DNA of 24,000 bases from Promethearchaeota archaeon (GTDB lineage Archaea > Asgardarchaeota > Heimdallarchaeia > Hodarchaeales > Hodarchaeaceae), in contig JBHLMN010000023.1 of assembly GCA_048938105.1 (NCBI GenBank), positions 80,079 to 104,078 on the forward strand, given 5' to 3'. Each line of letters starts with the position of its first letter. Position 1 is the first letter of the stretch. The position numbers and the translations under genes were made by a program. Under the pieces are notes generated by a model. The model was not told the origin of the DNA. It made no database searches and saw only the letters and a program-made list of their open reading frames with translations. Of the stretch, positions 3,897 through 21,904 are shown one piece after another.

Positions 3897-5147
3897 ATGG
3901 TTAGTTGGAAGGTTATGTTTGCTTTAGGGGCACAGGATGAGGAAATTGAGTTATTTGATGCAGCAACCTTAGTTGATTGGGATCCAGAATTTAAAGGGGA
4001 GCTTATCGCTAGCTTCTTCAAAACTGACTACACTTGGATACCAGGATTAAAATCAGTGACACGAGATGATGTAATGTTCTCCCCTAAGAATTTCTTTGTA
4101 GTAGTAGGAAGGAAGTGGGGAGAATCTCAAACTCAAAGCATCCCATTGGGAGTACTTTTCGAGTTTACCGAGGGAGATCTACGATTACGAGGAGTAGGCC
4201 CAAAAAGCTTGTCAGAAAAAGCTGGAGGTGATAGTAACCTCCTTTTAAACTTAGTATCTGATCTTTTCGACAAACCTGATTTATGGAAAAGCAAAATCAG
4301 CATTTCTGCTAAGCCAAAAAGTGAATGGAAGGTAATTAGTGACATAATTGGAGAAGAACCTTGGCTTTTAATTGAGCAAGGCCGTAGAATAATGAAAACA
4401 GATCCTAGGAGAGCTATGGAAAATTTCACAAAAGCTTATAAAATATTCGACATTTTAACAGATATTAACGGTAAATTTCATGCAGTATTCGCCCAAGCTG
4501 AGTTATCACTTGATTCTATGAATTTTGATCTCACTAAAAATAGATTAGAATCGTTATGGGAGTTTACAAGTCAGTTAGGCGACCCCATGCTTGAAGAAAA
4601 CATTTTATCAACTGAGGGTATTCTTCTATACGAAAATCATCTCTATGAGCAGGCTATTGCAAAATTTGAACAAGCTTTAGAACGTGCAAAAAAAGCCAAT
4701 ATTCACAAAGCAGTTGTTAACGCTTATTGTAATATTGGTGAATGCTACTTTCGTGTCCAAAAATATGAAGAAGCAATGAAAAATTTTGATAAATCTCGTT
4801 CGTTAGCTGAATCAAGACAGGATCGTTATTCTCTTGCTATGTCTCAAGTTAATTTAGCTAAAGTATTGAAACAGTATGTACGGCAAGGGGATAGTTCTAG
4901 TGCTGCTCAAGCGGTATATTATCTTGAAGAAGCTATTCAGCTCTTTGAGGAGCTTGATGATAAAAAAGGACTTCTAATTGCACATGGTTTATTTGGGGAG
5001 ATTGAAGGACTACAAGGAAGTTTTGAAAAAGCTCTAATGCACTTTGAATTTGCAGCTGAAAAGGCTCAAACAACAAACGAACATCAGTTTCAAGAATTTT
5101 ATAGACAAAAAGCTCAAGAAATGAAAGATAGGCTTTACGACCTCTAA
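3897..5147 (+). CDS. TPR-repeat protein with an uncharacterised N-terminal domain of about 170 aa
   Basis: The C-terminal half carries several 34-40-aa TPR-like helical hairpins, e.g. AVVNAYCNIGECYFRVQKYEEAMKNFDKSRSLAE, YSLAMSQVNLAKVLKQY and LLIAHGLFGEIEGLQGSFEKALMHFEFAAEKA. The N-terminal part has no motif I recognise. GGTGA lies 9 nt upstream of the ATG. Confidence 0.6.
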   Translation: MVSWKVMFALGAQDEEIELFDAATLVDWDPEFKGELIASFFKTDYTWIPGLKSVTRDDVMFSPKNFFVVVGRKWGESQTQSIPLGVLFEFTEGDLRLRGVGPKSLSEKAGGDSNLLLNLVSDLFDKPDLWKSKISISAKPKSEWKVISDIIGEEPWLLIEQGRRIMKTDPRRAMENFTKAYKIFDILTDINGKFHAVFAQAELSLDSMNFDLTKNRLESLWEFTSQLGDPMLEENILSTEGILLYENHLYEQAIAKFEQALERAKKANIHKAVVNAYCNIGECYFRVQKYEEAMKNFDKSRSLAESRQDRYSLAMSQVNLAKVLKQYVRQGDSSSAAQAVYYLEEAIQLFEELDDKKGLLIAHGLFGEIEGLQGSFEKALMHFEFAAEKAQTTNEHQFQEFYRQKAQEMKDRLYDL

Positions 5148-5199: not shown

Positions 5200-5604
5200 T
5201 TATCCGAGAATTTCACCAATTTTTTTTGCAGCTTGTTTCATATCAAGGAATATCAGCCCTAATTTCACAGAACGACTTGCTGAAGTTGTTAAGACAGCTT
5301 TTGTCCCTGCTTGGACTGAAATTAAGTATCCACTGTCTCCCTCAACTAAGATACGTGTCATTTCCCCTTTCCCAGTTTCCATCACAGCTCTTTCACCCAA
5401 ACTTAAGATAGCTGCCGTCATCGCCGCCACTCGCACGTCATCCAACCCTGAAGGCAGTGTTGGAGGCCAGGATGAAATTGGTAACCCCTCTAAGGATACT
5501 ACAGAGGCAAAATCTATTGCTGGTAGTTTACTTACAAAACCTTCTAGCACTTCTGCTATTTCTTTGTGTACTTGGGTATCTGTTTCACTATCTGGAATGT
5601 ACAC
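5200..5604 (-). CDS. Roadblock/LC7 (MglB-like) domain protein
   Basis: 134 aa. The pattern is typical of Roadblock/LC7: IDFASVVSLEGLPISS...DDVRVAAMTAAILSLGERAVMETGKGEMTRILVEGDSGYLISVQAG. It has a GTG start with in-frame stops immediately upstream. Confidence 0.7.
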   Translation of the reverse strand: MYIPDSETDTQVHKEIAEVLEGFVSKLPAIDFASVVSLEGLPISSWPPTLPSGLDDVRVAAMTAAILSLGERAVMETGKGEMTRILVEGDSGYLISVQAGTKAVLTTSASRSVKLGLIFLDMKQAAKKIGEILG

Positions 5605-6040
5605 TTATTACACCCCTACTATGAGTAATTCTTGTAACATTTTCTTGAATTTTTGCATCTCTCATAACGTTATTTCGAATTTCTATCATTCTTGTTACAA
5701 TTGATGTCGTTGTATATTCTTAATTTGGGCGACTTATGTGAATATTATAACTCTAATATATAAGAATTCTTATTCCTAAAAATCTTACAGGATCAATGAT
5801 TCTTAGGAAATATCATCTTCTAACAATCAAAGCAGATCAAGGATAAGAAAATCAGTAAAGAAAAAATAAGTGCCTGACATGTAGATGTTATAATGTGAAT
5901 CTTAAGGCATTGAATATTTAAAGCACAATCAACGAGTGTAAATCAGTTTATTATTTCTTTGAGATGAATTGTTTCCTTTAGTTGGTATTTTTGTCGAGAG
6001 ATGAACCAAGTGCTAGATGTTGCTTTTCTTCTAGAATCAT

Positions 6041-6628
6041 TCAAGCTCTGGCTATTTGAGACTCTTTAGTTCCATAAAGCTGAATCATAAGGATTTCACG
6101 AGCTAATGATTGAAATGCACGTTTGACTCCGAGACCCGTGGTCGCAACGGTCTCATAGATGGGATAATCTTGGATTTTCAACTTGCTTACCAGCTCTGAT
6201 CTAGGTAAAGCATCCTGTACATCTCGCTTGTTAAGAGTAATCACAAGAGGGATGGTTTTTCCTAGTTGATCACCTAAACGCATTTTCAACTCATTGAAAG
6301 ATTCCACGTTCTCTTGAAATTGGGAAGCACTAGAATCGACAACAAAAATAAGACCATCTACTCCTCGTATCACTATCTTACGTTGGTGTTTGTGACGTTC
6401 TTGACCTGCAGTTGTATATACATCAAAAACAACACCTGTAGTTGCTTGCATTGGGACGAAATCGAAAAATAAGGTACGACCCGTGGGATCGGCTAATTGA
6501 GTAAATTTCCCTTTTTCAAGTCCATCCACTTTTTTATACAACCAAGCTAATGTTGTTGTTTTCCCACCCAGAGATGGGCCATAGAATACAACTTTGAATC
6601 GATGACGACCTTCTGCATCCTTTCTCAA
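6041..6628 (-). CDS. MglA-family Ras-like small GTPase
   Basis: It aligns block by block with Myxococcus MglA as I remember it: FYGPSLGGKTTTL (P-loop), RTLFFDFVPM (vs RTLFFDFLPL), YTTAGQERHKHQRKIVIRGVDGLIFVVDS (vs [29 protein letters not shown]), NKRD (G4) and ATTGLGVKRAFQSLAREIL. Confidence 0.88.
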   Translation of the reverse strand: MRKDAEGRHRFKVVFYGPSLGGKTTTLAWLYKKVDGLEKGKFTQLADPTGRTLFFDFVPMQATTGVVFDVYTTAGQERHKHQRKIVIRGVDGLIFVVDSSASQFQENVESFNELKMRLGDQLGKTIPLVITLNKRDVQDALPRSELVSKLKIQDYPIYETVATTGLGVKRAFQSLAREILMIQLYGTKESQIARA

Positions 6629-6674
6629 GAAATAAGTCTCCTCTGAAGGTTAGGAGTCGTGATTCAGAAATCTT

Positions 6675-7181
6675 TTAGAATTTTTCAAGTTCACGTAATG
6701 CTGCTTCTAGTTCATCTTTCTCAAGGCTTGTACGAATCTCAGGAGTCGCAGAAGCCACCCCTCCAACTGGTCGTGTGGGTTTTCCAGCTAGAAATTCGTC
6801 CAAAATATTACTGAGTTCTTCATTGGCTTTTCTCATGAGTAGACGGATCATTCCAATATTGACATCAGCATCAGATATGATTGTCAAAATTCCACGCCCG
6901 CAGGCACTTGCGAAGATCTTACCAGTATCAAACTCTGAAGTAACAATATCTAGGCCACCAATAGTTAGATTCAGGCCCTGTTCTGCAGATGCCATAAACA
7001 CAGCTGAAGCAATAGCCCCAATACCATCTACATCAACACTTACATAGCTGAATTTAGAGACGTGGGCAATTGTAAGACCAGTTCGATCAACAAGAATCAC
7101 TTTTTTTATGCCTGGTTCGCTTTTTATGATCTTACTAAGTACAGTGTCAAATCTTCTGGGATCTATCATGGTTATTACCAA
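6675..7181 (-). CDS. Roadblock/LC7 domain protein, MglB-like partner of the downstream GTPase
   Basis: 168 aa. The Roadblock pattern is GIKKVILVDRTGLTIAHVS...DGIGAIASAVFMASAEQGLNLTIGGLDIVTSEFDTGKIFASACGRGILTIISD. It lies 46 nt upstream of the MglA-like gene on the same strand. The track start is a TTG at 7181; an alternative ATG is at 7169. Confidence 0.75.
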   Translation of the reverse strand: MVITMIDPRRFDTVLSKIIKSEPGIKKVILVDRTGLTIAHVSKFSYVSVDVDGIGAIASAVFMASAEQGLNLTIGGLDIVTSEFDTGKIFASACGRGILTIISDADVNIGMIRLLMRKANEELSNILDEFLAGKPTRPVGGVASATPEIRTSLEKDELEAALRELEKF

Positions 7182-11790: not shown

Positions 11791-12792
11791 ATGGTGGTTG
11801 AATACGTGAAAGAGTACTTTTTAAAGGCTAGTAATGCCTTGACACGTCTAAATAATAGTGTCTCAACTAATGCTCGAAGTGTTGCAGATATTACATTGAA
11901 GATCTATACAAAATTTGAGGAGATTCGATACACAAGTGAAGCCATTCCTGATTTCATTCTTCATCCTAATCAAACCAAATCCAACCTCAAATCGAGTGGT
12001 GAAATACGGGTTGCCCAATTGCTTGCTTCTATTCTTTGTGAGCGAATTACAGATCAATCAATGCGATTAGCTGAGGATCTTGATTTTAGAGAAGAGGATT
12101 TGGATGTTCGAGAAGAAATCCGTGTGATTCACGAACATGTTACCCGATTGAGTGAAGTTATCCAAGTTCAAAAGAAATTAGCTGATGGTGCACCTGTTTC
12201 AACTGAAAGCATTAAAGACTTGCAGAAAAAATACGATACTCGCATTAAACAGCTAGAACAAGAGCTTTTGCGTAAAGAAGGTCGTGCTTTAACTGTAACT
12301 GCTCTAGATGCCACAAAAAAGCCGAAACTGTTTGGAAAGGGAAGATTTGAAAAAACACTAGATGATCTAATTCTTGAATATGGGAAAAATCTTCGTGCTA
12401 GTTCTGGTGGTTATATTTCGCTCGCAAATCTTTATACAGCTTTAAAGACTCAAGTTCCTGATGTCGAATTTTCTACAAAAGATCTTGAGAAATCCTGTAA
12501 ACGTCTCAAAAAACAATCTCTCATTGAAGGAATCGTAAAACGATCAGGGGTCAAGATAGTAGAATTTGTTCCAGTCACTCTTGGGAGTGATGCGAGGAAA
12601 GTTTTTGATTTAGCAGTTAATAAAGGATATGTCACACTCGAAGAGGTAATAATGGGTACCAAATGGGATCAACAACGTGTTGTTAGAGTTCTTGAAAGTC
12701 TTGTTAACCAAAAAATTGCTCGAAAAGTTTCCTCTCTTGATACAGGAGATCAATATTATTTTCCTGGATTATATGGGGACAATAGTTGGTAG
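11791..12792 (+). CDS. ESCRT-II Vps22/SNF8 (EAP30)-like protein: helical N-terminal half plus tandem winged helices
   Basis: The C-terminal ~140 aa align colinearly with human SNF8/EAP30 as I remember it. GGYISLANLYTAL matches GGLITLEELHQQV. FSTKDLEKSCKRLKK matches VSQDDLIRAIKKLKA. VNKGYVTLEEVIMGTKWDQQRVVRVLESLVNQKIARKVSSLDTGDQYYFPGLY matches EKNGYVTVSEIKASLKWETERARQVLEHLLKEGLAWLDLQAPGEAHYWLPALF. Confidence 0.8.
   Translation: MVVEYVKEYFLKASNALTRLNNSVSTNARSVADITLKIYTKFEEIRYTSEAIPDFILHPNQTKSNLKSSGEIRVAQLLASILCERITDQSMRLAEDLDFREEDLDVREEIRVIHEHVTRLSEVIQVQKKLADGAPVSTESIKDLQKKYDTRIKQLEQELLRKEGRALTVTALDATKKPKLFGKGRFEKTLDDLILEYGKNLRASSGGYISLANLYTALKTQVPDVEFSTKDLEKSCKRLKKQSLIEGIVKRSGVKIVEFVPVTLGSDARKVFDLAVNKGYVTLEEVIMGTKWDQQRVVRVLESLVNQKIARKVSSLDTGDQYYFPGLYGDNSW
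12073..12114 (+). repeat. In-frame 21-bp tandem duplication inside the Vps22-like gene (EDLDFRE / EDLDVRE)
   Basis: gaggatcttgattttagagaa is followed directly by gaggatttggatgttcgagaa, with 17/21 identical positions. Confidence 0.7.
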
Positions 12793-12802
12793 GTGAAATC
12801 TT

Positions 12803-13693
12803 ATGGCAGAAGTAGAGAAATTTGGTGGATTATTTCGTAGAATAGGCGATGCTGTACATATTGGAACGAAAAAATTTAAAGGAAAGTCAATTTTGAATTC
12901 AGATTTTGGTCCAGAAGCAGAAAGTTCATTGATTTGTAGGTTAAAATCCGAAGATTTTGATGGTTTTCGGAAGTACGATGGATTCATTGTTAAAGACCCA
13001 GAAAATGCGATTTTATTACAATCTGGATCTTTAGTAGGGGTCGCTGGCAGTGGTATTTACGAGCTGGATAAAAGTGCTAAACGACCTGGAAGTGAAATTA
13101 TCTGGGTAACAAAGCGGGAATTCATTATCAAATGGGGAACACCTGGGATTTATACCTCTGATAATATAATGGTTGGTTGTTATGGTATTTCTCGTATGAG
13201 GGTTGTCAACCCCCGTAATTTTATTATGAATGTTGTTTCACATAAACAGTACTATTCTGGTAATGAATTAAAGAATTGGGTCAAGCAGACAATTATAGCT
13301 GCCGTAAAACATGTTTTATCTCGATATTCTGTACCAGAGATGCTCAAGGAGCGTAGAAGTTTAGAAATCCAAACACGTTCAGAACTTGGACCTGAAACTT
13401 CTCGTTGGGGATTAGAGTTAGTTGGACTGGATATTGGGGGCTTCAAAGTACCTGATGAATATCAAGCCTTGTTATCATATGAAATCGAAAAACAGGTTTT
13501 GAAGCAACGCAGGGAGTTAGCAGAAGAAAGAAAAATGTTTGATGATTTAACGGAAAAAGTAAAGAAATATGAACATATGCTTGAACAAGCTGATGAAATG
13601 TTTCTCAGTGGTAAAATCTCAGAGAAAAAGTATAAGGAACTTACAGATAAATATTCTAAAAAATTAGCTCAATTTAAAGCTCAAATTTCATGA
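12803..13693 (+). CDS. SPFH/Band-7 superfamily protein of the YdjI / PF13421 (Band_7_1)-like type with a C-terminal coiled coil
   Basis: It has an N-terminal GGLF motif, then the pattern IVKDPENAILLQSGSLVGVAGSGIYEL...IIWVTKREFIIKWGTPGIYTSDN...GCYGISRMRVVNPRNFI...WGLELVGLDIGGFKVPDEYQ, which I recognise from COG4260/PF13421 proteins. The last ~70 aa are heptad-rich (KQRRELAEERKMFDDLTEKVKKYEHMLEQ). It starts 10 nt after the Vps22-like stop. Confidence 0.7.
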   Translation: MAEVEKFGGLFRRIGDAVHIGTKKFKGKSILNSDFGPEAESSLICRLKSEDFDGFRKYDGFIVKDPENAILLQSGSLVGVAGSGIYELDKSAKRPGSEIIWVTKREFIIKWGTPGIYTSDNIMVGCYGISRMRVVNPRNFIMNVVSHKQYYSGNELKNWVKQTIIAAVKHVLSRYSVPEMLKERRSLEIQTRSELGPETSRWGLELVGLDIGGFKVPDEYQALLSYEIEKQVLKQRRELAEERKMFDDLTEKVKKYEHMLEQADEMFLSGKISEKKYKELTDKYSKKLAQFKAQIS

Positions 13694-15454
13694 TAATTTA
13701 TTTTCCTGCAAACTTCCTCCACATTCTGGGCATAAAATCATTTCTACTGTACTCATTTCTTTGTAGCAATCCAGGCATACTTTTAAGCTACAAGATGTGC
13801 AGAAATAGTTAATAGAATCAGTTTTTGGAAGTTCACATACACCACAAAGAAATTTTTCTTCGTGTTTTTTCAATTGTAAGGTCATTTCTCGAATGTTGAT
13901 CTTCCCTTGAATTACACCACGTAAGATATAGTTTTCTAATAATACGATTGTATCGCTATCAGATCGGTTTGATAAATCTATTATTTGTTTGAGTGGAATT
14001 TCAGCTTTAGACGACTTTTCTAGAAATTCAGAGAGACTTGGATCTAATTCAGATGATTTAAGTGAAATTGGTTCGTGTTCTATCCATCCGATTTTTAAAG
14101 GACCCTTTTTGCAGAAATGACACTCCTCAGTGCTAACTAAATTATAGGAATGAGTGTAATTAACTCTACAATATGGGCAATATCTGGGAAGATCGATAAT
14201 AAATGCAGAAATATTTCTACAAAACGGACATTCATGTTTACTTCCAGTAGAACGGCAATTTGAGCACATAATTCGTCTACAATTTTGACATTCAAAATAA
14301 AGATCCGGATCAGTATATGAAGATGTGTCTATTTGGCAAAAAATTTCAAAATGGTCTACACCTTTAACTAAAAAGGGATCAGAGGTTTCTCCCGAGATAA
14401 GTCGTAATCCAAGGAGTTTCGCTAGCTTAAAAATCCGATCTAAAAGTTTTAATGGGTCTAGATTCAATGATGATGCTAAATGTTCAACAGCAATTCCATT
14501 TTCGAACCACTCGTTTAAAGAAGGAGCAATGAAATCTTCTGTAGTTAAAGTCCCCTTTAAACTTTGATTTAAAATATTTAACAGTTTAAAAAAATCAGAC
14601 CTGTCTACATCGAGACGTTGAATCCAGAAATCAATAGGAATATTACGATAAACGAATATATCTTTTAAGATTTGGTTTATAATGTCCATAATTGGATAGA
14701 GGTAATTGTAATTAGCAGAAAAAATATAGCTGATTTGGTCACGATTTGCCTCCAAAAATTCTAGACATTTCTCTTCAGAGAGTTGTGTTAATTTACTAAT
14801 ATGGCTAATAGAGACTTCAGATTCCAAGAGAAAACTTGTATCGATAAAACGAATGACATATTCGATATTTTTTCGAATATCTGAGGGAGATGAGAAGTTT
14901 AAAGAAGTGAAATTATATATTCGTTGTTTTATTGGATCAATGTAACCAATGAAATGACTATCCTGAGCAAGAAGCTCCAGAACACCTTCCAAATGTTCTT
15001 CAGCCCAGTAAAGCTGGTTCAATAGGTATTTCAATCCTATTGCCGTGGTAGTGTTTAACCTTTGTCTGATTTCTGCTTTGGCTCCAGGTAAGGTATAGAA
15101 ATTTCGGTTTATTATATCAAAGAATCCCTCAAAACTTTGAGCTCCTATTTTAATTTGTTGTTCTAGTAATTCTCCTGGTAAGTTTGTAGTGTCAATAAGA
15201 TTACATATGTCTATAAAGCCTTTTGTTGCCAATTCACGGGATATTAATTGGTGAAGGAAGTTAATAGGGATGAATTTTTCATCATCAAAACTAACAAAGC
15301 CATTCAGCTCATTTGAGCCAATTTTTGTGCGTAAAAATGCAGCAATAACGCTTGGATTTTCCTTCGGAGCCATTTCACGGAATTTAAGAGGAGTATTTGC
15401 CATTTGAGCCTTTGTTAACCATTGATGTCTCTTTCTCCCAAACATTGGTATCAC
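13688..15454 (-). CDS. Uncharacterised 588-aa protein: repeated winged-helix-like modules, a central cluster of five CxxC dyads and a C-terminal C4C4 RING-like finger (candidate E3/scaffold)
   Basis: A long, clean ORF. The central module (res 389-448) reads C-x2-C-x4-C-x2-C-x8-C-x2-C-x13-C-x2-C-x15-C-x2-C. The C-terminal module (res 537-578) reads C-x2-C-x11-C-x2-C-x4-C-x2-C-x11-C-x2-C. Several segments look like WH modules, e.g. FIPINFLHQLISRELATKGFIDICNLIDTTNLPGELLEQQI and IVLLENYILRGVIQGKINIREMTL. The confidence is for the functional call; the CDS itself is about 0.85. Confidence 0.45.
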   Translation of the reverse strand: MIPMFGRKRHQWLTKAQMANTPLKFREMAPKENPSVIAAFLRTKIGSNELNGFVSFDDEKFIPINFLHQLISRELATKGFIDICNLIDTTNLPGELLEQQIKIGAQSFEGFFDIINRNFYTLPGAKAEIRQRLNTTTAIGLKYLLNQLYWAEEHLEGVLELLAQDSHFIGYIDPIKQRIYNFTSLNFSSPSDIRKNIEYVIRFIDTSFLLESEVSISHISKLTQLSEEKCLEFLEANRDQISYIFSANYNYLYPIMDIINQILKDIFVYRNIPIDFWIQRLDVDRSDFFKLLNILNQSLKGTLTTEDFIAPSLNEWFENGIAVEHLASSLNLDPLKLLDRIFKLAKLLGLRLISGETSDPFLVKGVDHFEIFCQIDTSSYTDPDLYFECQNCRRIMCSNCRSTGSKHECPFCRNISAFIIDLPRYCPYCRVNYTHSYNLVSTEECHFCKKGPLKIGWIEHEPISLKSSELDPSLSEFLEKSSKAEIPLKQIIDLSNRSDSDTIVLLENYILRGVIQGKINIREMTLQLKKHEEKFLCGVCELPKTDSINYFCTSCSLKVCLDCYKEMSTVEMILCPECGGSLQENKLS

Positions 15455-15570: not shown

Positions 15571-15885
15571 ATGGCTCAACAAAAGATTAAATGTACAAAT
15601 TGTGGTTATATTCCCCGAGATCTCCCTGTTTCTGGGAGCTGGTACTGTCCGAAGTGTGGAAAACGTACAGAAATTCCCCACCACCGCCCACGAGTCGCTA
15701 GAAAATTCTATAAGAAGCCACGAATAACTCAAAAATCTCGAGATCAAGTAACAAGCAGAATCTATGATAAATTAACATATGAAAAAGTTCCCGATCTTGG
15801 GTTCAAAGAACCTTATTTAAAACCAAAAATTCCTCCAATTCTCCCCAAAAGAAGAGATAAAATACGATTATTTTATAAAAAATAA
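15571..15885 (+). CDS. Small basic zinc-ribbon protein, function unknown
   Basis: 104 aa. It has an N-terminal CxxC-x14-CxxC (KCTNCGYIPRDLPVSGSWYCPKCGKR) and a Lys/Arg/Pro-rich, probably disordered tail. It is divergent from the 588-aa gene across a 116-nt spacer. Confidence 0.5.
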   Translation: MAQQKIKCTNCGYIPRDLPVSGSWYCPKCGKRTEIPHHRPRVARKFYKKPRITQKSRDQVTSRIYDKLTYEKVPDLGFKEPYLKPKIPPILPKRRDKIRLFYKK

Positions 15886-15925: not shown

Positions 15926-17155
15926 TTAATTCTGAAATTTAATTTGCAAACGTATTTCTTCATCATCAATCAAAGAACTTAGTGTTATCCGATCACCATC
16001 AGAAAGAAATTTTTGGATGATCCCATTTTCAGGTATCATAAAGTTACCACGAAACCCAACATAATCTTTTTTGTGTTCTTCTCGAATTGTATCAAGAATA
16101 GATCTAAACTTTGATCTACAATCTACTGTTACGATTTGAATGGAATCTACAATGGTATTAGATTGGCCACATACTAGGCAATTTGGATCAGGAACTAGAT
16201 TGAAAGTGTTTATTGTCCCTGTTAGTGCAGAATATATGGTAAACGAAGGAATGCGGAATCTATGAGATTTCAATAAACCTTCAAGCGTTTTACGTTCTCT
16301 TTTTTTCATTCTCTCTTTTTTTTCTAGAAAAAGAGACTTTAGGATCTCTTGAGATTGGATTCCACTGACTACTGCATTAACTGTGATGAGACTGGGTACG
16401 TGGAAAAGGACTAATTGCATGAGTTCTTTTTCATCGAATTTTCCAAAATTATATTTATTAGCAAAATTATTTGCCAATTTCGTAAGTTCCGCAATATCTT
16501 TGGCTGAATTTTCAATAGGTGAGCGTACATGAGTTGTACTAAATTCATAAAGAGCTTTCCAAGCACAATGTTCTCTCTCACGAGGAACTCCCACTAAAGT
16601 ACAAGGAGCTGTTAAAACCCGAGTTTCATCAGGAGGTTGAGGGGTTTCACAAGCCAAACAAGCAGTAACATTTGGTTTTATATACTGAATTTGGCCGAAG
16701 TAGCCATCTGTAGCTGAATCTATTAAAGTTAATTTAAGGTCAACTGCTATTGCATTCAGATATTGTCGTGCCAAAAAGTTATCTACGCAACCAGCAATGA
16801 TGTCAACTTCGTGAAAAATCCTTTGAGGTAGGTTTTGGAGGAGGTTAGAATAACTTTCAATCTCAATATCAGGATTAAATCTTTCTCGAATCCGCTTTCT
16901 TGCTATTTCTGCCTTTTTTTTCCCAACATCTTCTTCTTTAAACAACATTTGACGATTTAAGTTTGAGAATTCTATAGTGTCCACATCAACAAGGATTAAA
17001 CGACCAACGCCTAATAAAGCTAAGTTCTTAGCTACTTCGCTACCTGTCCCTCCAACTCCTGCTATTAAAATCGCGCTATCTTCAATAATATGTTGATCCC
17101 AAAGAGATAAACGTTCTTGTCGGTCATATTTAGAAGAAGGAAGATCTTGTGTCAT
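15926..17155 (-). CDS. Ubiquitin-activating enzyme E1-like (ThiF/MoeB fold, UBA3/UBA2-type)
   Basis: The Rossmann ATP motif is IAGVGGTGSEVAKNL and NLNRQ follows. The crossover-loop zinc dyad plus catalytic-Cys region TACLACETPQPPDETRVLTAPCTLVGVPREREHCAWKA is colinear with UBA3 (TACIEC...P-x-CT...PR-x-PEHCI). A second dyad DPNCLVCG is present, and the C-terminal ~70 aa could be a UFD-like domain. Confidence 0.9.
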   Translation of the reverse strand: MTQDLPSSKYDRQERLSLWDQHIIEDSAILIAGVGGTGSEVAKNLALLGVGRLILVDVDTIEFSNLNRQMLFKEEDVGKKKAEIARKRIRERFNPDIEIESYSNLLQNLPQRIFHEVDIIAGCVDNFLARQYLNAIAVDLKLTLIDSATDGYFGQIQYIKPNVTACLACETPQPPDETRVLTAPCTLVGVPREREHCAWKALYEFSTTHVRSPIENSAKDIAELTKLANNFANKYNFGKFDEKELMQLVLFHVPSLITVNAVVSGIQSQEILKSLFLEKKERMKKRERKTLEGLLKSHRFRIPSFTIYSALTGTINTFNLVPDPNCLVCGQSNTIVDSIQIVTVDCRSKFRSILDTIREEHKKDYVGFRGNFMIPENGIIQKFLSDGDRITLSSLIDDEEIRLQIKFQN

Positions 17156-17204: not shown

Positions 17205-17525
17205 TCAACCCCCCTTAATCTGATCTGGAACTATCATGAGAATTGCATTTTGTTCGATTCCATAGGAAGAAAGATTGTTTGAAGGATTCATTCTTCTTCC
17301 CTTGAATAATAAAGCGATTGGTACAACTTCTGGGATATTAAATGCATCACGAGCTGCTGTGATAGCTTGAAATACAGTTCCATTAATATTAATGTATTTT
17401 TCACGGATATTTTGATCTGGAGGAAGTTGTGGATCTTTAAAGCGAATTTTTATCATTTTTTCAATACCACTGTCAGGAGCTTTTCCTGTAGAAGTAGAAT
17501 CCCATATTACGTCCTTTTTACTCAT
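17205..17525 (-). CDS. Ubiquitin-like beta-grasp modifier ending in Gly-Gly-stop, with an N-terminal extension of about 23 aa
   Basis: The core MIKIRFK...TVFQAITAARDAFNIPEVVPIALLFKGRRMNPSNNLSSYGIEQNAILMIVPDQIKGG* is colinear with ubiquitin (MQIFVKT...[34 protein letters not shown]). The track start is a GTG at 17534. I prefer the ATG at 17525 because AGGTGA lies 5 nt upstream of it. An internal ATG at 17456 would give an 83-aa ubiquitin-sized product. Confidence 0.85.
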   Translation of the reverse strand: MSKKDVIWDSTSTGKAPDSGIEKMIKIRFKDPQLPPDQNIREKYININGTVFQAITAARDAFNIPEVVPIALLFKGRRMNPSNNLSSYGIEQNAILMIVPDQIKGG

Positions 17526-17546
17526 TTTTTTCACCTTTCTGTCTAC

Positions 17547-18341
17547 TTAAGTATAAAACATACGTTCAATTTCTGAAAGTGTAGTAAGAATATCTATTCG
17601 TCCTTTGGCATAATCCTCTAAAGGTCCTCGAATAAGAGGGTATTTAGTTAGAATATCACTTTCAAGACCTATAGGTAAATTCTTTTTTCTCTTAATGATA
17701 AAATTTATTACTTCACCATTTTGGGCATAAAATCTTACAGTAATCTCTTTTTTTGCTGCTGATGCATCATAGTTTGCAAGAATTTGACGTATGAGAGGAT
17801 CATGTTCTTCTTGAATCGCAGCAGAAGCTTCAGAAGATGCCATAATGGGTTCTCCCATAACCTGGGGGAGTTCTTTTTCAGCCTTCTGATAGATTTCTTC
17901 TAATACGTCCAATACTGAACTTGAGCCAGGGGTCCAGTTTTTCATTACTTTCAAATCGTTGATTTCACAATCTAAGACTTCTCTAAGCTTAGCAGGACCA
18001 TCAATGTAGGGTCGATCAGGCAAATCATCCAACACAAGAAGAAGAGGAAAAGCATATTCCTTTACTTGCATCTTAATCCTTAGTTTACCTACTTCATCAC
18101 CAACAAATTCCCCAGGAAAATTTTCAAGGATTTTCTGTGATTCTTGATAAATAAGAAAGTAATTTTCAGCTTCCTCCTCTGCATCCATCATTTTGGCTTC
18201 TGCTGGTGTAATAGCTGCCCGTTTAAGGTAATTTGTCATGTCACAGTATTCACACTTTACAGGGTGCTGATATGATGGTCTTATTGGAAGGGGGGCCCCA
18301 CAGCCGCTACATTGAGAAATATCAGTTTGAATATCTTCCAT
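17547..18341 (-). CDS. Uncharacterised 264-aa protein: N-terminal zinc ribbon plus a putative degenerate UBC/RWD-like core lacking HPN
   Basis: The zinc ribbon is C11-x2-C14-x15-C30-x2-C33. Res ~55-160 follow the E2 secondary-structure logic: a helix (AENYFLIYQESQKILENFPG), a strand meander (EFVGDEVGKLRIKMQVKEYAFPLLLVL), a DLPDRPYI loop in place of YPFKPP, a single Cys125 and NWTPGSSSVLDVLEEIYQ resembling the E2 W-SP-x-helix. It is the first gene of the Ubl-E1 operon, with a 12-nt gap to the Ubl ORF. The fold assignment is by eye only. Confidence 0.4.
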   Translation of the reverse strand: MEDIQTDISQCSGCGAPLPIRPSYQHPVKCEYCDMTNYLKRAAITPAEAKMMDAEEEAENYFLIYQESQKILENFPGEFVGDEVGKLRIKMQVKEYAFPLLLVLDDLPDRPYIDGPAKLREVLDCEINDLKVMKNWTPGSSSVLDVLEEIYQKAEKELPQVMGEPIMASSEASAAIQEEHDPLIRQILANYDASAAKKEITVRFYAQNGEVINFIIKRKKNLPIGLESDILTKYPLIRGPLEDYAKGRIDILTTLSEIERMFYT

Positions 18342-18400
18342 TTTTTTTGATCACCCATTATGTGAGGAATGTTCGTGCAAGATGAGTCAGTCTTTAGACC

Positions 18401-18562: not shown

Positions 18563-19105
18563 GTGCAGGATTTACATTCTAGACGACTACGAGAAGAGTT
18601 CAAACGGATGCTGAAAACTTATCCCCCAAAAACAAGTCCCATTAAATGGACTATAGTCAATAATGACCTTCATCATTACAAAGCGACTATTAAAGGAAAA
18701 AAAAATACTCCTTATGAGGGAGGGAAATGGAAGATCACTCTTGACTTACCTTCTGAATATCCCTTTAAACCTCCTATTATCAACTTTTTAACCCCTATTT
18801 ATCACCCTAATATCGCAACTGGTAAAACTCAATGGAAGTGGGGCTCCAATGTATGTTTAAGTCTTGTAAATTGGAATAATTTAGGGAAACCTGGTGGTTG
18901 GAAGGAAACGATAACCTTGCCAAGCGTTTTTGAACATATTGAAATGATGCTAGATGTTTTTAAGACAACTGGGGATGTGGATTTTCCAGAATATCTTGTT
19001 GATCCAAATGATCCTTTTAATCCTAAAGCTGGAGAGATTATGAACACAAATTTTGATAAATTCTGGGAAATAGCTGTTAATTGGACCAAAAAGCATGCAA
19101 AGTAA
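18563..19105 (+). CDS. Ubiquitin-conjugating enzyme E2 (UBC fold, HPN + catalytic Cys)
   Basis: The N-terminal helix is RRLREEFKRMLK. Further blocks are TPYEGGKWKITLDLPSEYPFKPPIINFLTPIYHPNI (HPN at res 81-83), catalytic Cys98 in NVCLSL, and the C-terminal DPNDPFNPKAGEIM...FWEIAVNWTKKHA. GTG start. Confidence 0.9.
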   Translation: MQDLHSRRLREEFKRMLKTYPPKTSPIKWTIVNNDLHHYKATIKGKKNTPYEGGKWKITLDLPSEYPFKPPIINFLTPIYHPNIATGKTQWKWGSNVCLSLVNWNNLGKPGGWKETITLPSVFEHIEMMLDVFKTTGDVDFPEYLVDPNDPFNPKAGEIMNTNFDKFWEIAVNWTKKHAK

Positions 19106-19137: not shown

Positions 19138-19737
19138 ATGTCTAATCATAATAAACAAAAAGATTTGAACTCAGAAAATTCTGAAATAACAGAAGAAAAA
19201 ACTACTGATAAAATACAAGAAAGCTCCTTTAGTAGACAAGTGGAAATCAAAAAGGTAAAAATTTCTTCATCTCCCCAAGTTCAGTCAGTCTCAATCTTAG
19301 GAAATCTACTTGATGAAATAACTGAATATTCGGTAAAATCTATGCCTAGGGAAGCTATTGGTCTGTTAGGTGGAAGAGAACTACGTCCCAAAGAAATAGA
19401 AATATTAAAAATAATTTTTGTGTCAGAAGGTGACGAAATCTCTGTTTCCTTTTCTGATGAAGATTTTGAGGCTTTCGAAAATATTTTAGAAGATGATTGT
19501 TATTGTTGTGGGTGGTGGCATTCTCATCCAGGATATGGCTTATTTCTGTCTCAAACAGATATAAATACTCATATTTTTTCTTTTCAGCTCCATAATGATC
19601 TTTCTGTTGCACTTGTTATTGAACCTACTATAAGAGATATGACTGGCCGTGCCGCTTTTCAATTTTACCAAGTTATAAGCGAAGATAAGAAGGATTCTTT
19701 CGGATACAAGGAAATTGCTAGCTATATACAACATTAA
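19138..19737 (+). CDS. JAMM/MPN+ metalloprotease (Rpn11/AMSH-like deubiquitinase)
   Basis: The JAMM motif is complete: Glu in PREAIGLLGG, then WWHSHPGYGLFLSQTDINTH (H-x-H-x7-S-x2-D). It has a ~45-aa low-complexity N-terminal extension and starts 32 nt after the E2 stop. Confidence 0.88.
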   Translation: MSNHNKQKDLNSENSEITEEKTTDKIQESSFSRQVEIKKVKISSSPQVQSVSILGNLLDEITEYSVKSMPREAIGLLGGRELRPKEIEILKIIFVSEGDEISVSFSDEDFEAFENILEDDCYCCGWWHSHPGYGLFLSQTDINTHIFSFQLHNDLSVALVIEPTIRDMTGRAAFQFYQVISEDKKDSFGYKEIASYIQH

Positions 19738-19925: not shown

Positions 19926-20735
19926 ATGAGTTCGATGAAGTTGAATTGGGGGTTTTTTGAGTTTCATCTCGAATATTTAACTCGTTTTTTCCTTCAAGAT
20001 GGATATGGGATGATAGACTATATTTTGATTTTCCTTGGTCCAGGGACAGTTTTATTCTTTACATTCTACCTTTTATGGGCTGGAAGGCGAAAAAATCGCA
20101 AAATTATGCATTTATCACGTGAAGCTTTACTAGATGTCTTTGCAAACGAATTTGATGATCTAGTTATGGAGCAGATGAGTTCAAACGGGGGTTTATTAAT
20201 TCCCAAGTACAAGAAATCTTATGATATACCTTTCCAAGATTTTCGTGTAGTATTTGCCCTAGAAGAAAGGCATCTCATGTTATCAGTCATCATCTCATGG
20301 TTTTCAGGAGTAAATGATTATATTGCACTAGAGGCAAACTCGAAAAAGGGAGAAGTACGTACTCAAATTCCTACCAAGATTCAAATTATACCTAAACATG
20401 AAGAAGGTCAAATAAGAAAACATCAGGATCTCCTGTTTAAACTGGAAGATATTGAACTTGGAGTAAAAAGATTTGATGATGTTTTTTTGGTGAAAGCGAC
20501 CACCCAACGGACAGGAACATACTTTCTAGGTGATAAAAACCTTCTGAAACTAATTCACAATGTTAGAAAAGTAATTGTTAGAATTTCAGTTGATTCTGCT
20601 GACGACCCATCTCTTCGTATTTATGCACGAATTAACAAAGATTTGAATCTTGAGAGGTTACACGCCCTTTTCATTGCATTTTGTGATCGGATTAATGAGG
20701 TTTCTGAAAAAGTGGTCATGAAGAAAAAACGATAG
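19926..20735 (+). CDS. Hypothetical membrane-anchored protein (one N-terminal TM helix plus a ~210-aa soluble domain)
   Basis: A hydrophobic helix MIDYILIFLGPGTVLFFTFYLLWAG is followed by the positive cluster RRKNRK. The remainder is hydrophilic with no motif I recognise. Confidence 0.55.
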   Translation: MSSMKLNWGFFEFHLEYLTRFFLQDGYGMIDYILIFLGPGTVLFFTFYLLWAGRRKNRKIMHLSREALLDVFANEFDDLVMEQMSSNGGLLIPKYKKSYDIPFQDFRVVFALEERHLMLSVIISWFSGVNDYIALEANSKKGEVRTQIPTKIQIIPKHEEGQIRKHQDLLFKLEDIELGVKRFDDVFLVKATTQRTGTYFLGDKNLLKLIHNVRKVIVRISVDSADDPSLRIYARINKDLNLERLHALFIAFCDRINEVSEKVVMKKKR

Positions 20736-20779: not shown

Positions 20780-21343
20780 TTATAAAAGATCGATTTTTTC
20801 AGTCACTCTTTGACGGAGCCATTCAAGTCCTTCCTCGACGTTAAAACCAGTTTTAGCTGAAGTGGGAACGATAGCATATGAATGTGTCGTGACTTTGTGA
20901 AGGTTAAGCCCTCGCGCAACCTCTCCAGCTGAAGCAGCATTTTCTAGATCTTGCTTGTTGGCAAGTACTAAAATTGGTATGTTTTCTACCTTATCATTGT
21001 CAAGGACATATTTCCATAACTCCATCCTAGCTTCAGTGAGTCTGGGCCTATCAGCTGAATCTACTACATATACGATTCCCATACTACCTGACATGTAGCT
21101 TTCCCAAAGAGATTCACGAAAAGCTTCTTGTCCCCCAATATCCCAAGAAATAAATCGTACATTCCCAGAACTGAATTCATCAACATTCATCCCCAGTGTT
21201 CGGAAAGTACTACTGTTAAATTCTCCAGAAGTAATTCGTTTGACTAATGTGGTTTTTCCAGCCTGGTCAAGACCTAACCACGCAATTTTCACAGTTAACT
21301 TTTCTTTGGCAAATTTAGCACGGAGCTTTGAAAGGAAACTCAT
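20780..21343 (-). CDS. Arf/Arl-family small GTPase (Arl8-like by eye)
   Basis: G1 is GLDQAGKTTL. The interswitch/G3 signature is WDIGGQ, G4 is NKQD and G5 is SAKTG, followed by EGLEWL. The N-terminal segment MSFLSKLRAKFAKEK looks amphipathic. The stretch SGEFNSSTFRTLGMNV...VRFISWDIGGQEAFRESLWESY...IVYVVDSAD resembles Arl8. Confidence 0.88.
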   Translation of the reverse strand: MSFLSKLRAKFAKEKLTVKIAWLGLDQAGKTTLVKRITSGEFNSSTFRTLGMNVDEFSSGNVRFISWDIGGQEAFRESLWESYMSGSMGIVYVVDSADRPRLTEARMELWKYVLDNDKVENIPILVLANKQDLENAASAGEVARGLNLHKVTTHSYAIVPTSAKTGFNVEEGLEWLRQRVTEKIDLL

Positions 21344-21352
21344 TTAGGGCAC

Positions 21353-21904
21353 CTATCTGCTTTTCTGTGACATTCTACGTTGAAACCTGTCGCTCATCCA
21401 CTGCCAAGGTTCCTCAACCCCTTCACCTGTTAAGGCTGAGCATGGGTAGACTGCGAATGTTCTTGGTCTTGCAGCCATCTCCTTCTCGAGCTCTAACGTG
21501 TGGATAATTCTTTCCAATGTCATTGCTTCTCTTAAATCTTGTTTATTTGCCAAGAAAAGGAATGCAGAGTCTTCTGGCGCCCATTGAATGACATTTTTCA
21601 ACCATTTTCCTGCATTTTCAACTTTAGATCTGTCTGCAGAATCAAATACAAACACAATACCTGATGCATCTGAAACAAATGGTTTCCATAGGCTAGTAGG
21701 AAATGTGGCTTGACCACCCAGATCTGCTGCCATTACTTCAATATTGCCAATTTTTAAAGTTTCAATATTCATCCCCATTGTTGGAACGGTCTCTAAATCA
21801 TCATCTCCCTTAAGTCTTTTTACTAATGTAGTTTTCCCCGCATTTGCAAGACCAACAAATGCTATCTGATTTTCTATTTCTCGACCAAACAATTTTGTCG
21901 GCAT
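21353..21904 (-). CDS. Divergent Arf-like small GTPase (paralogue of the downstream gene)
   Basis: G1 is GLANAGKTTLVKRL. G3 is DLGGQ, with AAD replacing the WD of Arf. G4 is NKQD and G5 is SALTGEGV. It lies 9 nt upstream of the other Arf-like gene on the same strand. Confidence 0.8.
   Translation of the reverse strand: MPTKLFGREIENQIAFVGLANAGKTTLVKRLKGDDDLETVPTMGMNIETLKIGNIEVMAADLGGQATFPTSLWKPFVSDASGIVFVFDSADRSKVENAGKWLKNVIQWAPEDSAFLFLANKQDLREAMTLERIIHTLELEKEMAARPRTFAVYPCSALTGEGVEEPWQWMSDRFQRRMSQKSR

Follow-up and report, generated by a model that had tools for sequence, protein, structure and literature searches.

Characterised archaeal ubiquitin cassettes, namely that of Caldiarchaeum and the ESCRT-linked cassettes of Asgard archaea, comprise ubiquitin, E1, E2, a RING E3 and a deubiquitinase, along with UEV-type ESCRT-I readers. 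Some analyses put the Hodarchaeales, of all Asgard archaea, nearest to eukaryotes. FANCL, the E3 ligase of the Fanconi anaemia core complex, joins ELF, DRWD/URD and RING domains in one protein, and BRE/BRCC45 is a tandem UEV scaffold of the JAMM deubiquitinase complexes BRISC and BRCA1-A, in which BRCC45 organises BRCC36. RWD proteins (PF05773; for instance the GCN2 RWD and RWDD3/RSUME) and the kinetochore proteins CENP-O/P and Knl1 are devoid of a catalytic cysteine and serve as protein-protein adaptors. The UEV domains of Mms2/Uev1a, Tsg101/Vps23 and the Asgard proteins UEV-Vps23 and UEV-Vps28 are inactive versions of the E2 fold that belong to ubiquitin pathways; the genes of the Asgard versions lie close to those for ubiquitin, and their products bind it (PMC9192718; bioRxiv 10.1101/2023.07.25.550441). 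The current view confines the radiation of this RWD class to the interval from FECA to LECA; 'an RWD-like domain' has been mentioned in Asgard archaea (Tromer et al. 2019, PMC6601020). That passing mention and a different group, UEV_X, present in Gerd-, Heimdall- and Kariarchaeia, were all that a search of the literature on Asgard RWD, double-RWD, FANCL-like and ZnR-E2-like proteins returned; UEV_X or an asCOG might correspond to the family described below.

The window analysed here is a stretch of 24,000 nucleotides from a Hodarchaeales genome, and it contains an uncharacterised and unannotated Asgard-archaeal protein, ZnR-DRWD, which combines a zinc ribbon with two enzyme-dead, E2-like domains of RWD type, the folds being predicted. 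Its gene (17547..18341, minus strand; the positions of its parts given below are on the same strand) runs from ATG to TAA, encodes 264 amino acids and heads a minus-strand unit; a GGTGA motif (18351..18355), 9 nt 5' of the ATG, would act as a Shine-Dalgarno-like signal. The open reading frame is genuine. Strong purifying selection (dN/dS of 0.06–0.13 against nine orthologues, eight of which gave a usable ratio, dS being saturated for L016), 67 homologues and synteny kept at 21 genome loci make it more than a chance frame, and it belongs to a conserved unit of DRWD, Ubl and E1 genes. All three modules of the protein are under constraint. Among the homologues found, the family is restricted to Asgard archaea. 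Neither Pfam nor NCBIfam scans gave a significant match, the family having no model in either, and the source annotation of its members is nearly always 'hypothetical protein'.

ZnR-DRWD is part of a conserved Ubl/E1 cassette. Directly 3' of it, as in all loci compared, lies the Ubl gene (17205..17534, minus strand), which encodes 109 amino acids from a GTG or, probably, 106 from the ATG at 17525, ends in KGG and matches Rad60-SLD (2.3e-6) and ubiquitin (6.8e-5) in Pfam; its product has an N-terminal extension with the residues DVIW. The sequence-only reading had put the two genes 12 nt apart; this stands if GTG 17534 is the start, and becomes 21 nt with the likelier ATG, which has its own GGTGA at 17535-17531. 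The third gene of the triad, for a 409-aa E1-like activating enzyme (15926..17155, minus strand; Pfam ThiF 1.7e-55), is co-oriented as that reading had it. On the same strand follows a gene for a winged-helix-rich protein of 588 aa (13688..15454), a candidate E3 partner that has a Cys-rich module in its middle and closes with a C4C4 RING-like finger; the best PDB sequence match of its residues 532-581 is the CNOT4 RING (E 0.0017), ahead of those of BRE1A, UHRF1 and TRIM37. Divergently transcribed, on the plus strand, are a canonical E2 with HPN and Cys (18563..19105; Pfam UQ_con 7.1e-24) and a JAB/MPN deubiquitinase-like gene (19138..19737; Pfam JAB 7.6e-9), and genes for an EAP30 (ESCRT-II-like) and an SPFH protein belong to the same conserved island.

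The order DRWD, Ubl, E1 is retained down to 36% identity. In L027 all genes are co-oriented and the winged-helix zinc (WH-Zn) protein follows E1; in L031 a single operon carries six components, namely WH-Zn (WH-RING), E1, E2, JAB, ZnR-RWD3 and Ubl; and Freyrarchaeia have the ZnR-RWD gene in divergent orientation to a WH-Zn homologue. Homologues of the 588-aa protein adjoin ZnR-RWD genes in L027, L031 and L003, and ZnR-DRWD is never found apart from Ubl, E1 and a winged-helix protein bearing a CNOT4-like C4C4 RING. The proposal of a new accessory factor for Ubl and E1 is upheld by a conserved, previously unannotated member of the unit, with synteny in 21 genomes. To the components of the described cassettes it adds a sixth, conserved and unannotated, in the form of a tandem pseudo-E2 whose gene keeps a tight linkage with those for E1 and Ubl in the Hodarchaeales.

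At the N-terminus of ZnR-DRWD, residues 9-37 (18231..18317) form the zinc ribbon, whose pattern C11-x2-C14-x15-C30-x2-C33 occupies nt 18243-18311 exactly as first described. Its four cysteines are invariant in 31 homologues, as are G15, A16, P17, Y32 and N37. Zinc-finger models of Pfam matched it below threshold only; a sub-profile of the ribbon recovers the same module in the relatives P0069, P0072, P0076 and P0078 (E 1e-9 to 1e-13). An acidic linker with variable columns (aa 40-52, 18186..18224; pLDDT below 50) leads to the first domain, D1, and a second linker (aa 163-179, 17805..17855), gapped and variable in length and sequence, with pLDDT below 50 at aa 164-173, separates D1 from D2.

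D1 (aa 53-162, 17856..18185) is predicted to have the core fold of UBC domains. In the AF2 model of the full-length protein (pLDDT 77.5; pTM 0.46, too low to fix the packing of D1 against D2) its elements are helix 54-74, strands 77-79, 86-93, 96-103 and 112-114, and helices 117-123, 131-134 and 143-161, an alpha-beta4-alpha succession as in UBC/RWD folds. The sequence-only reading had placed the E2 elements at residues ~55-160 and had suggested modelling followed by structural comparison, and this comparison bears the placement out as far as prediction allows. The best Foldseek matches of the whole protein are FANCL chains (7kzp_L/M, E 5e-4 and 8e-4, prob 1.0), followed by 9a0j_L and 3zqs_A (the FANCL DRWD) and then by many E2s (prob 0.97-0.99, TMt 0.45-0.50); CENP-O and Knl1 are also among the matches, and UEV domains of Vps23/TSG101 (1uzx_A, 3p9g_A; E 0.5-0.8, prob 0.54-0.66) come lower in the ranking than FANCL and the E2s. 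The TM-scores against FANCL, at 0.22-0.29, are low, so the match does not establish common descent.

At the level of sequence, the relation of D1 to E2s is transitive. Direct comparison with the family of the resident E2 found no profile similarity (hhalign prob 0.3), UQ_con did not match ZnR-DRWD even at E<=1, and PDB sequences, queried with ZnR-DRWD alone and with the profiles A1 (family) and A3 (D1 superfamily), gave no significant match, the best (PTPdelta, a SUMO2 strand and BRE, E 0.41) being at chance level. Nor does the Pfam RWD model match the protein itself; the RWD link passes through relatives in Asgard archaea on which that model does score. D1 aligns with a UQ_con-like domain found in multi-RWD proteins from Asgard archaea (hhalign prob 96.5, E 8e-10), this with the RWD-positive last domain of the same proteins (prob 95), and that in turn with the resident E2 (prob 84).

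Two motifs follow a similar path. The motif DLPDRPYI (aa 106-113), which had been proposed to replace YPFKPP, contains the loop L-P-D-R-P (aa 107-111, 18009..18023), in which P108 is found in all 31 homologues and P111 in 30. The alignment pairs DDLPDRP-YI with DNFPNSPPQI of the UQ_con-positive Asgard domain, and FPNSPP of that domain with YPFKPP of the resident E2; because of this chain from DLPDRP through FPNSPP to YPFKPP, the equivalence of loop and motif is supported transitively. The counterpart of the E2/RWD 'W-x-P' helix, noted earlier as a W-SP helix, lies in NWTPGSSSVLDVLEEI (aa 135-150, 17892..17939), which includes an invariant W136 and aligns with MWTPESSVVDIIDEL of the UQ_con-like domain; the W and an E of this region are almost invariant in the superfamily alignment A3. 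With its predicted alpha-beta4-alpha order, a PhiPxxxP loop (L107-P-D-R-P111) and a variable cysteine, D1 would sit with the non-catalytic class of RWD/UBC domains. Every motif first quoted for the protein is found in its sequence.

D1 shares the fold class and, transitively, the PhiPxxxP loop and W-x-P helix with canonical E2s (PF00179), the resident one included, but it lacks their HPN, their conserved Cys and their Pfam match. The HPN triad is absent, as had been observed, the region reading YIDGPAKLREVLD. Cys125 (codon TGT, 17967..17969) is the sole cysteine outside the ribbon, and a Ubl thioester on it, in a second E2 that like UFC1 does without HPN, was one of the functions originally envisaged. 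The residue does lie roughly at the E2 catalytic position, past the PxxxP loop and with the conserved Trp 11 residues further on; it is kept in 27 of 31 close homologues, and one distant member carries the source label 'ubiquitin-conjugating enzyme E2'. However, the other four have R, F, S or a gap, every distant homologue lacks it (P0069, P0070, P0071, P0072, P0076 and P0078), the RWD region of the related multi-RWD proteins has no Cys at all, neither HPN nor an equivalent nor a UQ_con match is present, and the cassette already encodes a canonical HPN+Cys E2 next door. Conservation rules Cys125 out as a catalytic residue, and since it is not conserved we reject the second E2, which we regard as exceedingly improbable. 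As read from the sequence, the catalytic residues of ZnR-DRWD have been lost.

The C-terminal third of the protein (aa 180-264, 17550..17804), D2, is its most conserved part and appears to be a divergent RWD-like domain. Modelled by itself, D2 gave a pLDDT of 90.7 and a pTM of 0.79, with the topology a-b-b-b-(b)-a-a-a; its top Foldseek matches are CENP-O and FANCL (TMq 0.50-0.53), at a weak E of 0.13 or worse, and those to FANCL 7kzp_L/M (TMq 0.52-0.53) have an E of 0.39 or worse. In sequence it is linked to one other domain only, the orthologous one in the middle of ZnR-triple-RWD proteins (hhalign prob 79). No link was found outside its own orthologues, comparison with the resident E2 family gave a prob below 1, and a test for internal duplication of D1 and D2 gave no sequence support (prob 6.9). 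Invariant features of D2 are the basic patch K217-R218-K219-K220 (17682..17693) and the motif EDYxKGR (aa 242-248); in D1 the GDExxK loop (aa 81-86) likewise counts among the invariant surface residues. Two other identities for D2 were discarded: a Vps23 stalk or steadiness box, since D2 contains a beta-meander and has no ESCRT-I matches in Foldseek, and a beta-grasp or SUMO-like fold, suggested by a local match to the SUMO2 beta1-beta2 hairpin (E 0.13), since the AF2 topology is without the C-terminal strands. This second domain had been overlooked in the sequence-only reading.

Because aa 180-264 make up a second RWD-like domain, the predicted architecture of ZnR-DRWD is a tandem RWD in the style of FANCL and the kinetochore proteins rather than a single UEV. 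This bears on the comparison with Vps23/Tsg101, of which one part holds (a UBC/RWD fold, non-catalytic) and another fails (no stalk or steadiness box, and a tandem in place of one UEV); in the absence of stalk and steadiness box the comparison is valid at fold level only. A receptor of UEV type, in which D1, perhaps with the ribbon, binds free or conjugated Ubl non-covalently and passes modified cargo to downstream machinery such as ESCRT-II, would be a reader and not part of a ligase. The UBC-like fold without catalytic residues, the Vps23 and TSG101 domains among the Foldseek matches, the experimental binding of ubiquitin by Asgard UEV domains in the sources cited above, the EAP30 and SPFH genes of the island, and a gene always directly beside that for Ubl would all suit such a receptor. 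We nevertheless consider it unlikely: the UEV matches are weak and lie below FANCL and E2s, Pfam UEV and Vps23_core do not match, a coiled-coil stalk, a steadiness box and a Vps28 domain are all missing, and D2, an alpha/beta domain, does not recall the ESCRT-I headpiece in Foldseek. ZnR-DRWD also differs from UEV proteins in its added zinc ribbon and second RWD-like domain, the genes to which its own is tied in L027, L031 and L028 are those for E1 and the RING protein and not ESCRT genes, and a separate UEV-Vps23 locus exists in Hodarchaeia (Lu et al.).

A tandem of inactive UBC-like domains whose gene shares a cassette with a JAB/MPN gene also recalls BRE/BRCC45, and a scaffold that organises and regulates the JAB/MPN deubiquitinase could be envisaged, the more so as JAB lies directly 5' of the ZnR-RWD gene in L031. 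BRE chains do occur in the Foldseek list (6gvw_C, prob 0.44; 6r8f_E, prob 0.16), next to the sub-threshold profile match already given, and the Pfam BRE model scores 4.7e-4 on the relative P0079. Every BRE match is nonetheless below significance, the linkage to JAB is not universal (the DRWD-Ubl-E1 triad of L001, L025 and L027 has no adjoining JAB gene) and an MPN-minus, Abraxas-like partner was not seen, and we judge this scaffold very unlikely.

Since E2 and JAB do not adjoin the triad in lineages at 36-39% identity, a role centred on E1 or Ubl would fit the synteny equally well. ZnR-DRWD might dock on the E1, as an E2 does on the UFD, and, as a regulator or decoy, modulate Ubl activation or transfer, or it might itself be a dedicated substrate and the main target of Ubl, modified for instance at the KRKK lysines. 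The deepest conserved linkage, which holds DRWD, Ubl and E1 without E2 or JAB, and the invariant lysine-rich patch of D2 speak for this, as does the reported in vitro ubiquitylation of Asgard UEV-Vps23 (bioRxiv 10.1101/2023.07.25.550441). Against it, the patch is not kept in the triple-RWD relatives and decoy E2s are rare; we hold this role to be distinctly improbable.

FANCL is the closest parallel: no other structure matched the whole protein better, D2 also has it high in its list, and tandem, Cys-free UBC/RWD-like domains in a ubiquitin-type ligation system, in ZnR-DRWD as predicted, would be common to both proteins. ZnR-DRWD differs in lacking a RING, having an N-terminal zinc ribbon instead, and in having only two UBC-like domains; no zinc finger follows its RWDs, the protein stopping at D2. 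Significant sequence similarity to FANCL was not found, the Pfam models FANCL_d1 and FANCL_d2 matching relatives only, and those below threshold. With the RWD and kinetochore proteins it has in common the predicted alpha-beta4-alpha order and the PhiPxxxP loop, as well as the predicted tandem layout of the double-RWD members, but it is encoded in a Ubl operon and not among genes of translation control or chromosome segregation.

As ZnR-DRWD is encoded with Ubl and its activating enzyme in every case, it probably serves an early machinery of ubiquitin tagging as a helper subunit and not as a second E2. As a pseudo-E2 in which a flexible, acidic linker joins a zinc ribbon to a degenerate D1 of UBC/RWD fold, itself followed by a more divergent RWD-like D2, it would be a core accessory subunit of the Asgard cassette of Ubl, E1, E2, JAB deubiquitinase and winged-helix RING protein, and would form no thioester itself. 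Its tandem RWD module may bind Ubl, the E2~Ubl conjugate, the substrate, or more than one of these, and may cooperate with the separately encoded RING protein, in which case the UBC-like domains and RING of one ligase would be spread over two genes. That ZnR-DRWD in this sense serves ligation as an adaptor without catalysis of its own, so that a FANCL-like E3 is in effect divided between two genes, is an explanation we hold tentatively, at somewhat short of an even chance. If it is correct, multi-domain RWD scaffolds and a substrate-selective E3 architecture arose before eukaryotes, and six soluble proteins would offer a small, tractable system in which to reconstitute an early ubiquitin ligase.

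Fused counterparts exist. The D1 profile matches repeated Cys-free domains of other Asgard proteins, which score in Pfam for UQ_con and RWD (lowest values 4e-12 and 5e-9, respectively) and end in a C4HC3 RING/PHD-like finger, a fusion of RWD and RING domains that adds to the likeness to FANCL. We rejected an equation of this RING with the zinc modules of the 588-aa protein, as the Cys spacings differ. Since the finger types are distinct (C4HC3 against C4C4 with a central Cys-rich module) and the C4C4 finger of the homologue in L027 is degenerate, 'split FANCL' is valid only at the level of domain class.

Cys-free RWD proteins would take two forms in Asgard archaea, one fused to a RING/PHD finger as in FANCL and one a ZnR-double-RWD subunit alongside Ubl, E1 and a separate RING protein. 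It is conceivable, if doubtful, that the tandem and multiple Cys-free RWD proteins of Asgard archaea and Hodarchaeales reflect a double-RWD module, that of FANCL and the kinetochore (CENP-O/P, Knl1), which predates eukaryogenesis and began as the part of an archaeal ligase that handles substrate or Ubl. Such an origin, if true, would supply a concrete prokaryotic ancestor for the RWD class. We flag the Asgard multi-RWD-RING family as relevant to the origin of FANCL and the kinetochore RWD proteins; one of its members, P0083 of Helarchaeota, is encoded directly 5' of E1.

The gene for ZnR-DRWD (17547..18341(-)) is an open reading frame of 264 codons, running from ATG to TAA, with a GGTGA motif 9 nt 5' of the start. 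A gap of 12 nt separates its end from the GTG (17534) of the frame for the ubiquitin-like protein (Ubl), and E1 (Pfam ThiF, 1.7e-55) lies downstream of Ubl on the same strand, as the sequence-only reading had described; the resident E2 (18563-19105(+)), which has both HPN and Cys and matches UQ_con at 7.1e-24, is divergent from this unit, as is a JAB/MPN gene. The motifs quoted in that reading were all recovered where it had placed them: the zinc ribbon C11-x2-C14-x15-C30-x2-C33, DLPDRPYI at aa 106-113, NWTPGSSSVLDVLEEI at aa 135-150, a single Cys outside the ribbon (Cys125) and the absence of HPN. Purifying selection is strong (dN/dS 0.06-0.13 in comparisons with nine orthologues, of which eight yielded a usable ratio) and constraint spans all three modules of the protein.

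When 5.8 billion proteins were searched by word index, 67 homologues emerged at 36-90% identity, nearly all of them ~260-266 aa long. Their sources are without exception MAGs or metagenomes of Hodarchaeales/Heimdall-type Asgard archaea, and each homologue is either unnamed or called 'hypothetical protein'. Only 33 proteins were matched when a profile was run exhaustively against 1.84 billion cluster representatives, and those with a source name are all Asgard archaea (Hodarchaeales, Freyrarchaeia, Helarchaeota or 'Promethearchaeota'). ZnR-DRWD itself gave nothing significant in Pfam, NCBIfam or PDB sequence searches.

In the AlphaFold2 model (31-sequence alignment, pLDDT 77.5, pTM 0.46) the zinc ribbon spans aa 9-37 and is followed by an acidic, disordered linker (aa 40-52), a first domain, D1 (aa 53-162; H54-74, four strands, H117-123, H131-134 and H143-161), a variable linker, and a second domain, D2 (aa 180-264), in which a single helix precedes a meander of three to four strands and three further helices. 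The order of UBC/RWD elements that had been proposed from sequence is thus borne out for D1, and Foldseek comparison of the model, the check suggested with that proposal, returned UBC-fold proteins, FANCL and E2s. FANCL ranked first against the PDB (7kzp_L/M, E 5e-4 and 8e-4, prob 1.0), with further FANCL matches to 9a0j_L and, at rank 7, to the DRWD fragment 3zqs_A; many E2s also matched (Ube2e2, Ube2S, Ubc4; prob 0.97-0.99, TMt 0.45-0.50). These results reasonably support D1 as a predicted UBC/RWD fold. Kinetochore RWD proteins, BRE, FTS and the UEV domains of Vps23/TSG101 appeared at lower ranks; a putative UEV-like Ubl reader feeding ESCRT-II is an unlikely reading of the protein, and a putative BRE-like scaffold for the JAB enzyme a very improbable one.

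D2 was overlooked in the sequence-only reading, although it is the most conserved portion of the protein, its invariant residues including KRKK 217-220 and EDYxKGR 242-248 in the family alignment. Refolded by itself with a broader alignment (pLDDT 90.7, pTM 0.79), it matched best CENP-O, FANCL (TMq 0.52-0.53 and rmsd 3.7-4.1 Å for FANCL) and the FANCL DRWD fragment, at non-significant E-values of at least 0.13, so that its modelled identity as an atypical RWD is plausible but weakly supported. By sequence it matched solely the middle domain of ZnR-triple-RWD relatives (hhalign prob 79). In a profile search its beta1-beta2 hairpin KKEITVRFYAQNGEVINFIIKRKK (aa 198-220, 17682-17750(-)) resembled SUMO2 beta1-beta2 (E 0.13), probably by chance since the fold predicted for D2 is not beta-grasp.

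Profile comparison matched D1 to repeated domains of larger Asgard proteins; against their N-terminal domain hhalign gave prob 96.5 and E 8e-10, with DDLPDRP-YI aligned onto DNFPNSPPQI and KNWTPGSSSVLDVLEEI onto KMWTPE-SSVVDIIDEL. These larger proteins have Pfam matches to UQ_con, with E-values as low as 4e-12, and to RWD, as low as 5e-9, and their domains align with the resident E2 around YPFKPP (hhalign prob 22-84). The proposed equivalences between motifs of ZnR-DRWD and of E2 therefore hold only transitively, D1 and the resident E2 being without direct similarity (hhalign prob 0.3). One group of Asgard proteins (P0075-P0094; for example L028 8001-9272, L026 8001-9905 and L029 6001-7863) carries three to five tandem, Cys-free UBC/RWD-like domains and a conserved C-terminal finger of the C4HC3 RING/PHD type (CxxC-x4-CPxC...CPxC-x4-HxxCW-x11-CxxC), an architecture like that of FANCL that appears to be undescribed.

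The suggestion that ZnR-DRWD might be a non-canonical second E2 acting through Cys125 did not survive. Of 31 aligned family members, 27 have C at this position and the others R, F, S or a gap, and the residue is missing from all more distant homologues; related multi-RWD arrays mostly lack any Cys outside the C-terminal finger. Since Cys125 varies, HPN is absent and a canonical E2 is encoded alongside, we rejected this alternative, and a true E2 is extremely improbable. A Freyrarchaeia ZnR-triple-RWD relative (P0100, cluster of P0069; MDO8077948.1) is annotated at source as 'ubiquitin-conjugating enzyme E2', probably an over-annotation of a D1-type domain without a conserved catalytic Cys. ZnR-DRWD is very probably an accessory subunit of the Ubl system that has the UBC fold but no catalytic function.

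The entire island is kept in 21 genome loci: one strand carries ThrRS, two Arf-like GTPases, a 269-aa protein, JAB and E2, the other ZnR-DRWD, Ubl and E1 together with a 588-aa winged-helix/Zn protein (WH-RING; 13688-15454(-)), and SPFH and EAP30 come next. The ZnR-DRWD, Ubl and E1 triad is retained in lineages at only 36-39% identity; a putative E1-directed regulator or dedicated substrate is nevertheless quite unlikely. In a second Hodarchaeales lineage (L027) the triad is followed, co-oriented throughout, by a 600-aa full-length homologue of the 588-aa protein (blastp 5e-58), and a 'Promethearchaeota' contig (L031) has one tight operon, WH-Zn(579)-E1-E2-JAB-ZnR-RWD3-Ubl, including a ZnR-triple-RWD relative, all of whose genes are homologous to their window counterparts. 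In Freyrarchaeia a ZnR-RWD relative and a 660-aa WH-Zn homologue are transcribed divergently. In Helarchaeota (L028) the gene immediately upstream of E1 encodes a three-RWD protein that ends in a C4HC3 RING/PHD-like finger, and ThrRS and a small GTPase are close by.

The 588-aa family accompanies ZnR-RWD genes in four Asgard lineages. The 588-aa protein has the C-terminal finger C-x2-C-x11-C-x2-C-x4-C-x2-C-x11-C-x2-C, which is degenerate in L027; the best PDB sequence match of this finger is the CNOT4 C4C4 RING (E 0.0017), followed by other RING E3s, and the protein is a candidate RING E3. We interpret ZnR-DRWD as a non-catalytic pseudo-E2 whose tandem domains are of RWD type and as a core component of an Asgard cassette for Ubl conjugation; it could act as an adaptor at the ligation step, a FANCL-like ligase being in effect split into an RWD subunit and a separate RING subunit. 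The rank of FANCL as best structural match, the RING/PHD finger that other Asgard lineages have fused to D1-type domains and the obligatory co-occurrence with a separate RING-like protein all point this way, and we hold this ligation-step role tentatively, at somewhat less than even chances.

E2-fold proteins without catalysis are well known (UEV, RWD, FANCL, BRE). In the literature that we searched, neither a ZnR-double-RWD subunit belonging to the E1/Ubl operon nor Asgard multi-RWD-RING proteins are described, and Tromer et al. 2019 (PMC6601020) noted for Asgard only 'an RWD-like domain'; the family may overlap an asCOG or the 'UEV_X' group of Lu et al. Ubiquitin binding is reported as demonstrated for Asgard UEV-Vps23 and UEV-Vps28 (PMC9192718; bioRxiv 10.1101/2023.07.25.550441). 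A further reading, in which tandem-RWD adaptors like those of FANCL and the kinetochore already existed before eukaryotes and had their origin within a ubiquitin ligase of archaea, is rather unlikely.

Several neighbouring genes merit brief description. The 588-aa protein has many winged-helix-like repeats and a central Cys-rich module (CxxC-x4-CxxC-x8-CxxC...), and its homologues give faint Pfam signals for PCI, EAP30 and E3_UFM1_ligase. Ubl is listed at 17205-17534(-) from the GTG, and its true start is probably the in-frame ATG at 17525, with its own GGTGA at 17535-17531. Its N-terminal extension of ~22 aa contains a DVIW motif conserved in lineages whose partner has D2. The window Ubl terminates in a ready-made GG, while the L025 and L031 orthologues would require processing of their short tails (GGFLSISN, GGFI). 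Between E1 and WH-RING, on the opposite strand (15571-15885(+)), lies the gene for a zinc-ribbon protein of 104 aa whose long tail is basic and rich in proline; it keeps this position in all Hodarchaeales loci (40-87% identity). The 269-aa protein (19926-20735(+)), beside JAB, has one predicted N-terminal membrane segment; the two adjacent Arf-family GTPases of the island occupy 20780-21904(-). An EAP30 gene (ESCRT-II Vps22/36-like, 7.5e-10) and immediately an SPFH/Band-7 gene (11791-13693(+)) adjoin WH-RING in all Hodarchaeales loci and in L001. Consecutive Roadblock/LC7, small GTPase and second Roadblock/LC7 (MAPKK1_Int-like) genes (5200-7181(-)) look like a Ragulator/LAMTOR-like GTPase module, and a 416-aa TPR protein (3897-5147(+)) weakly matches the proteasome lid subunit RPN7 (4e-8), probably owing to its TPR repeats.
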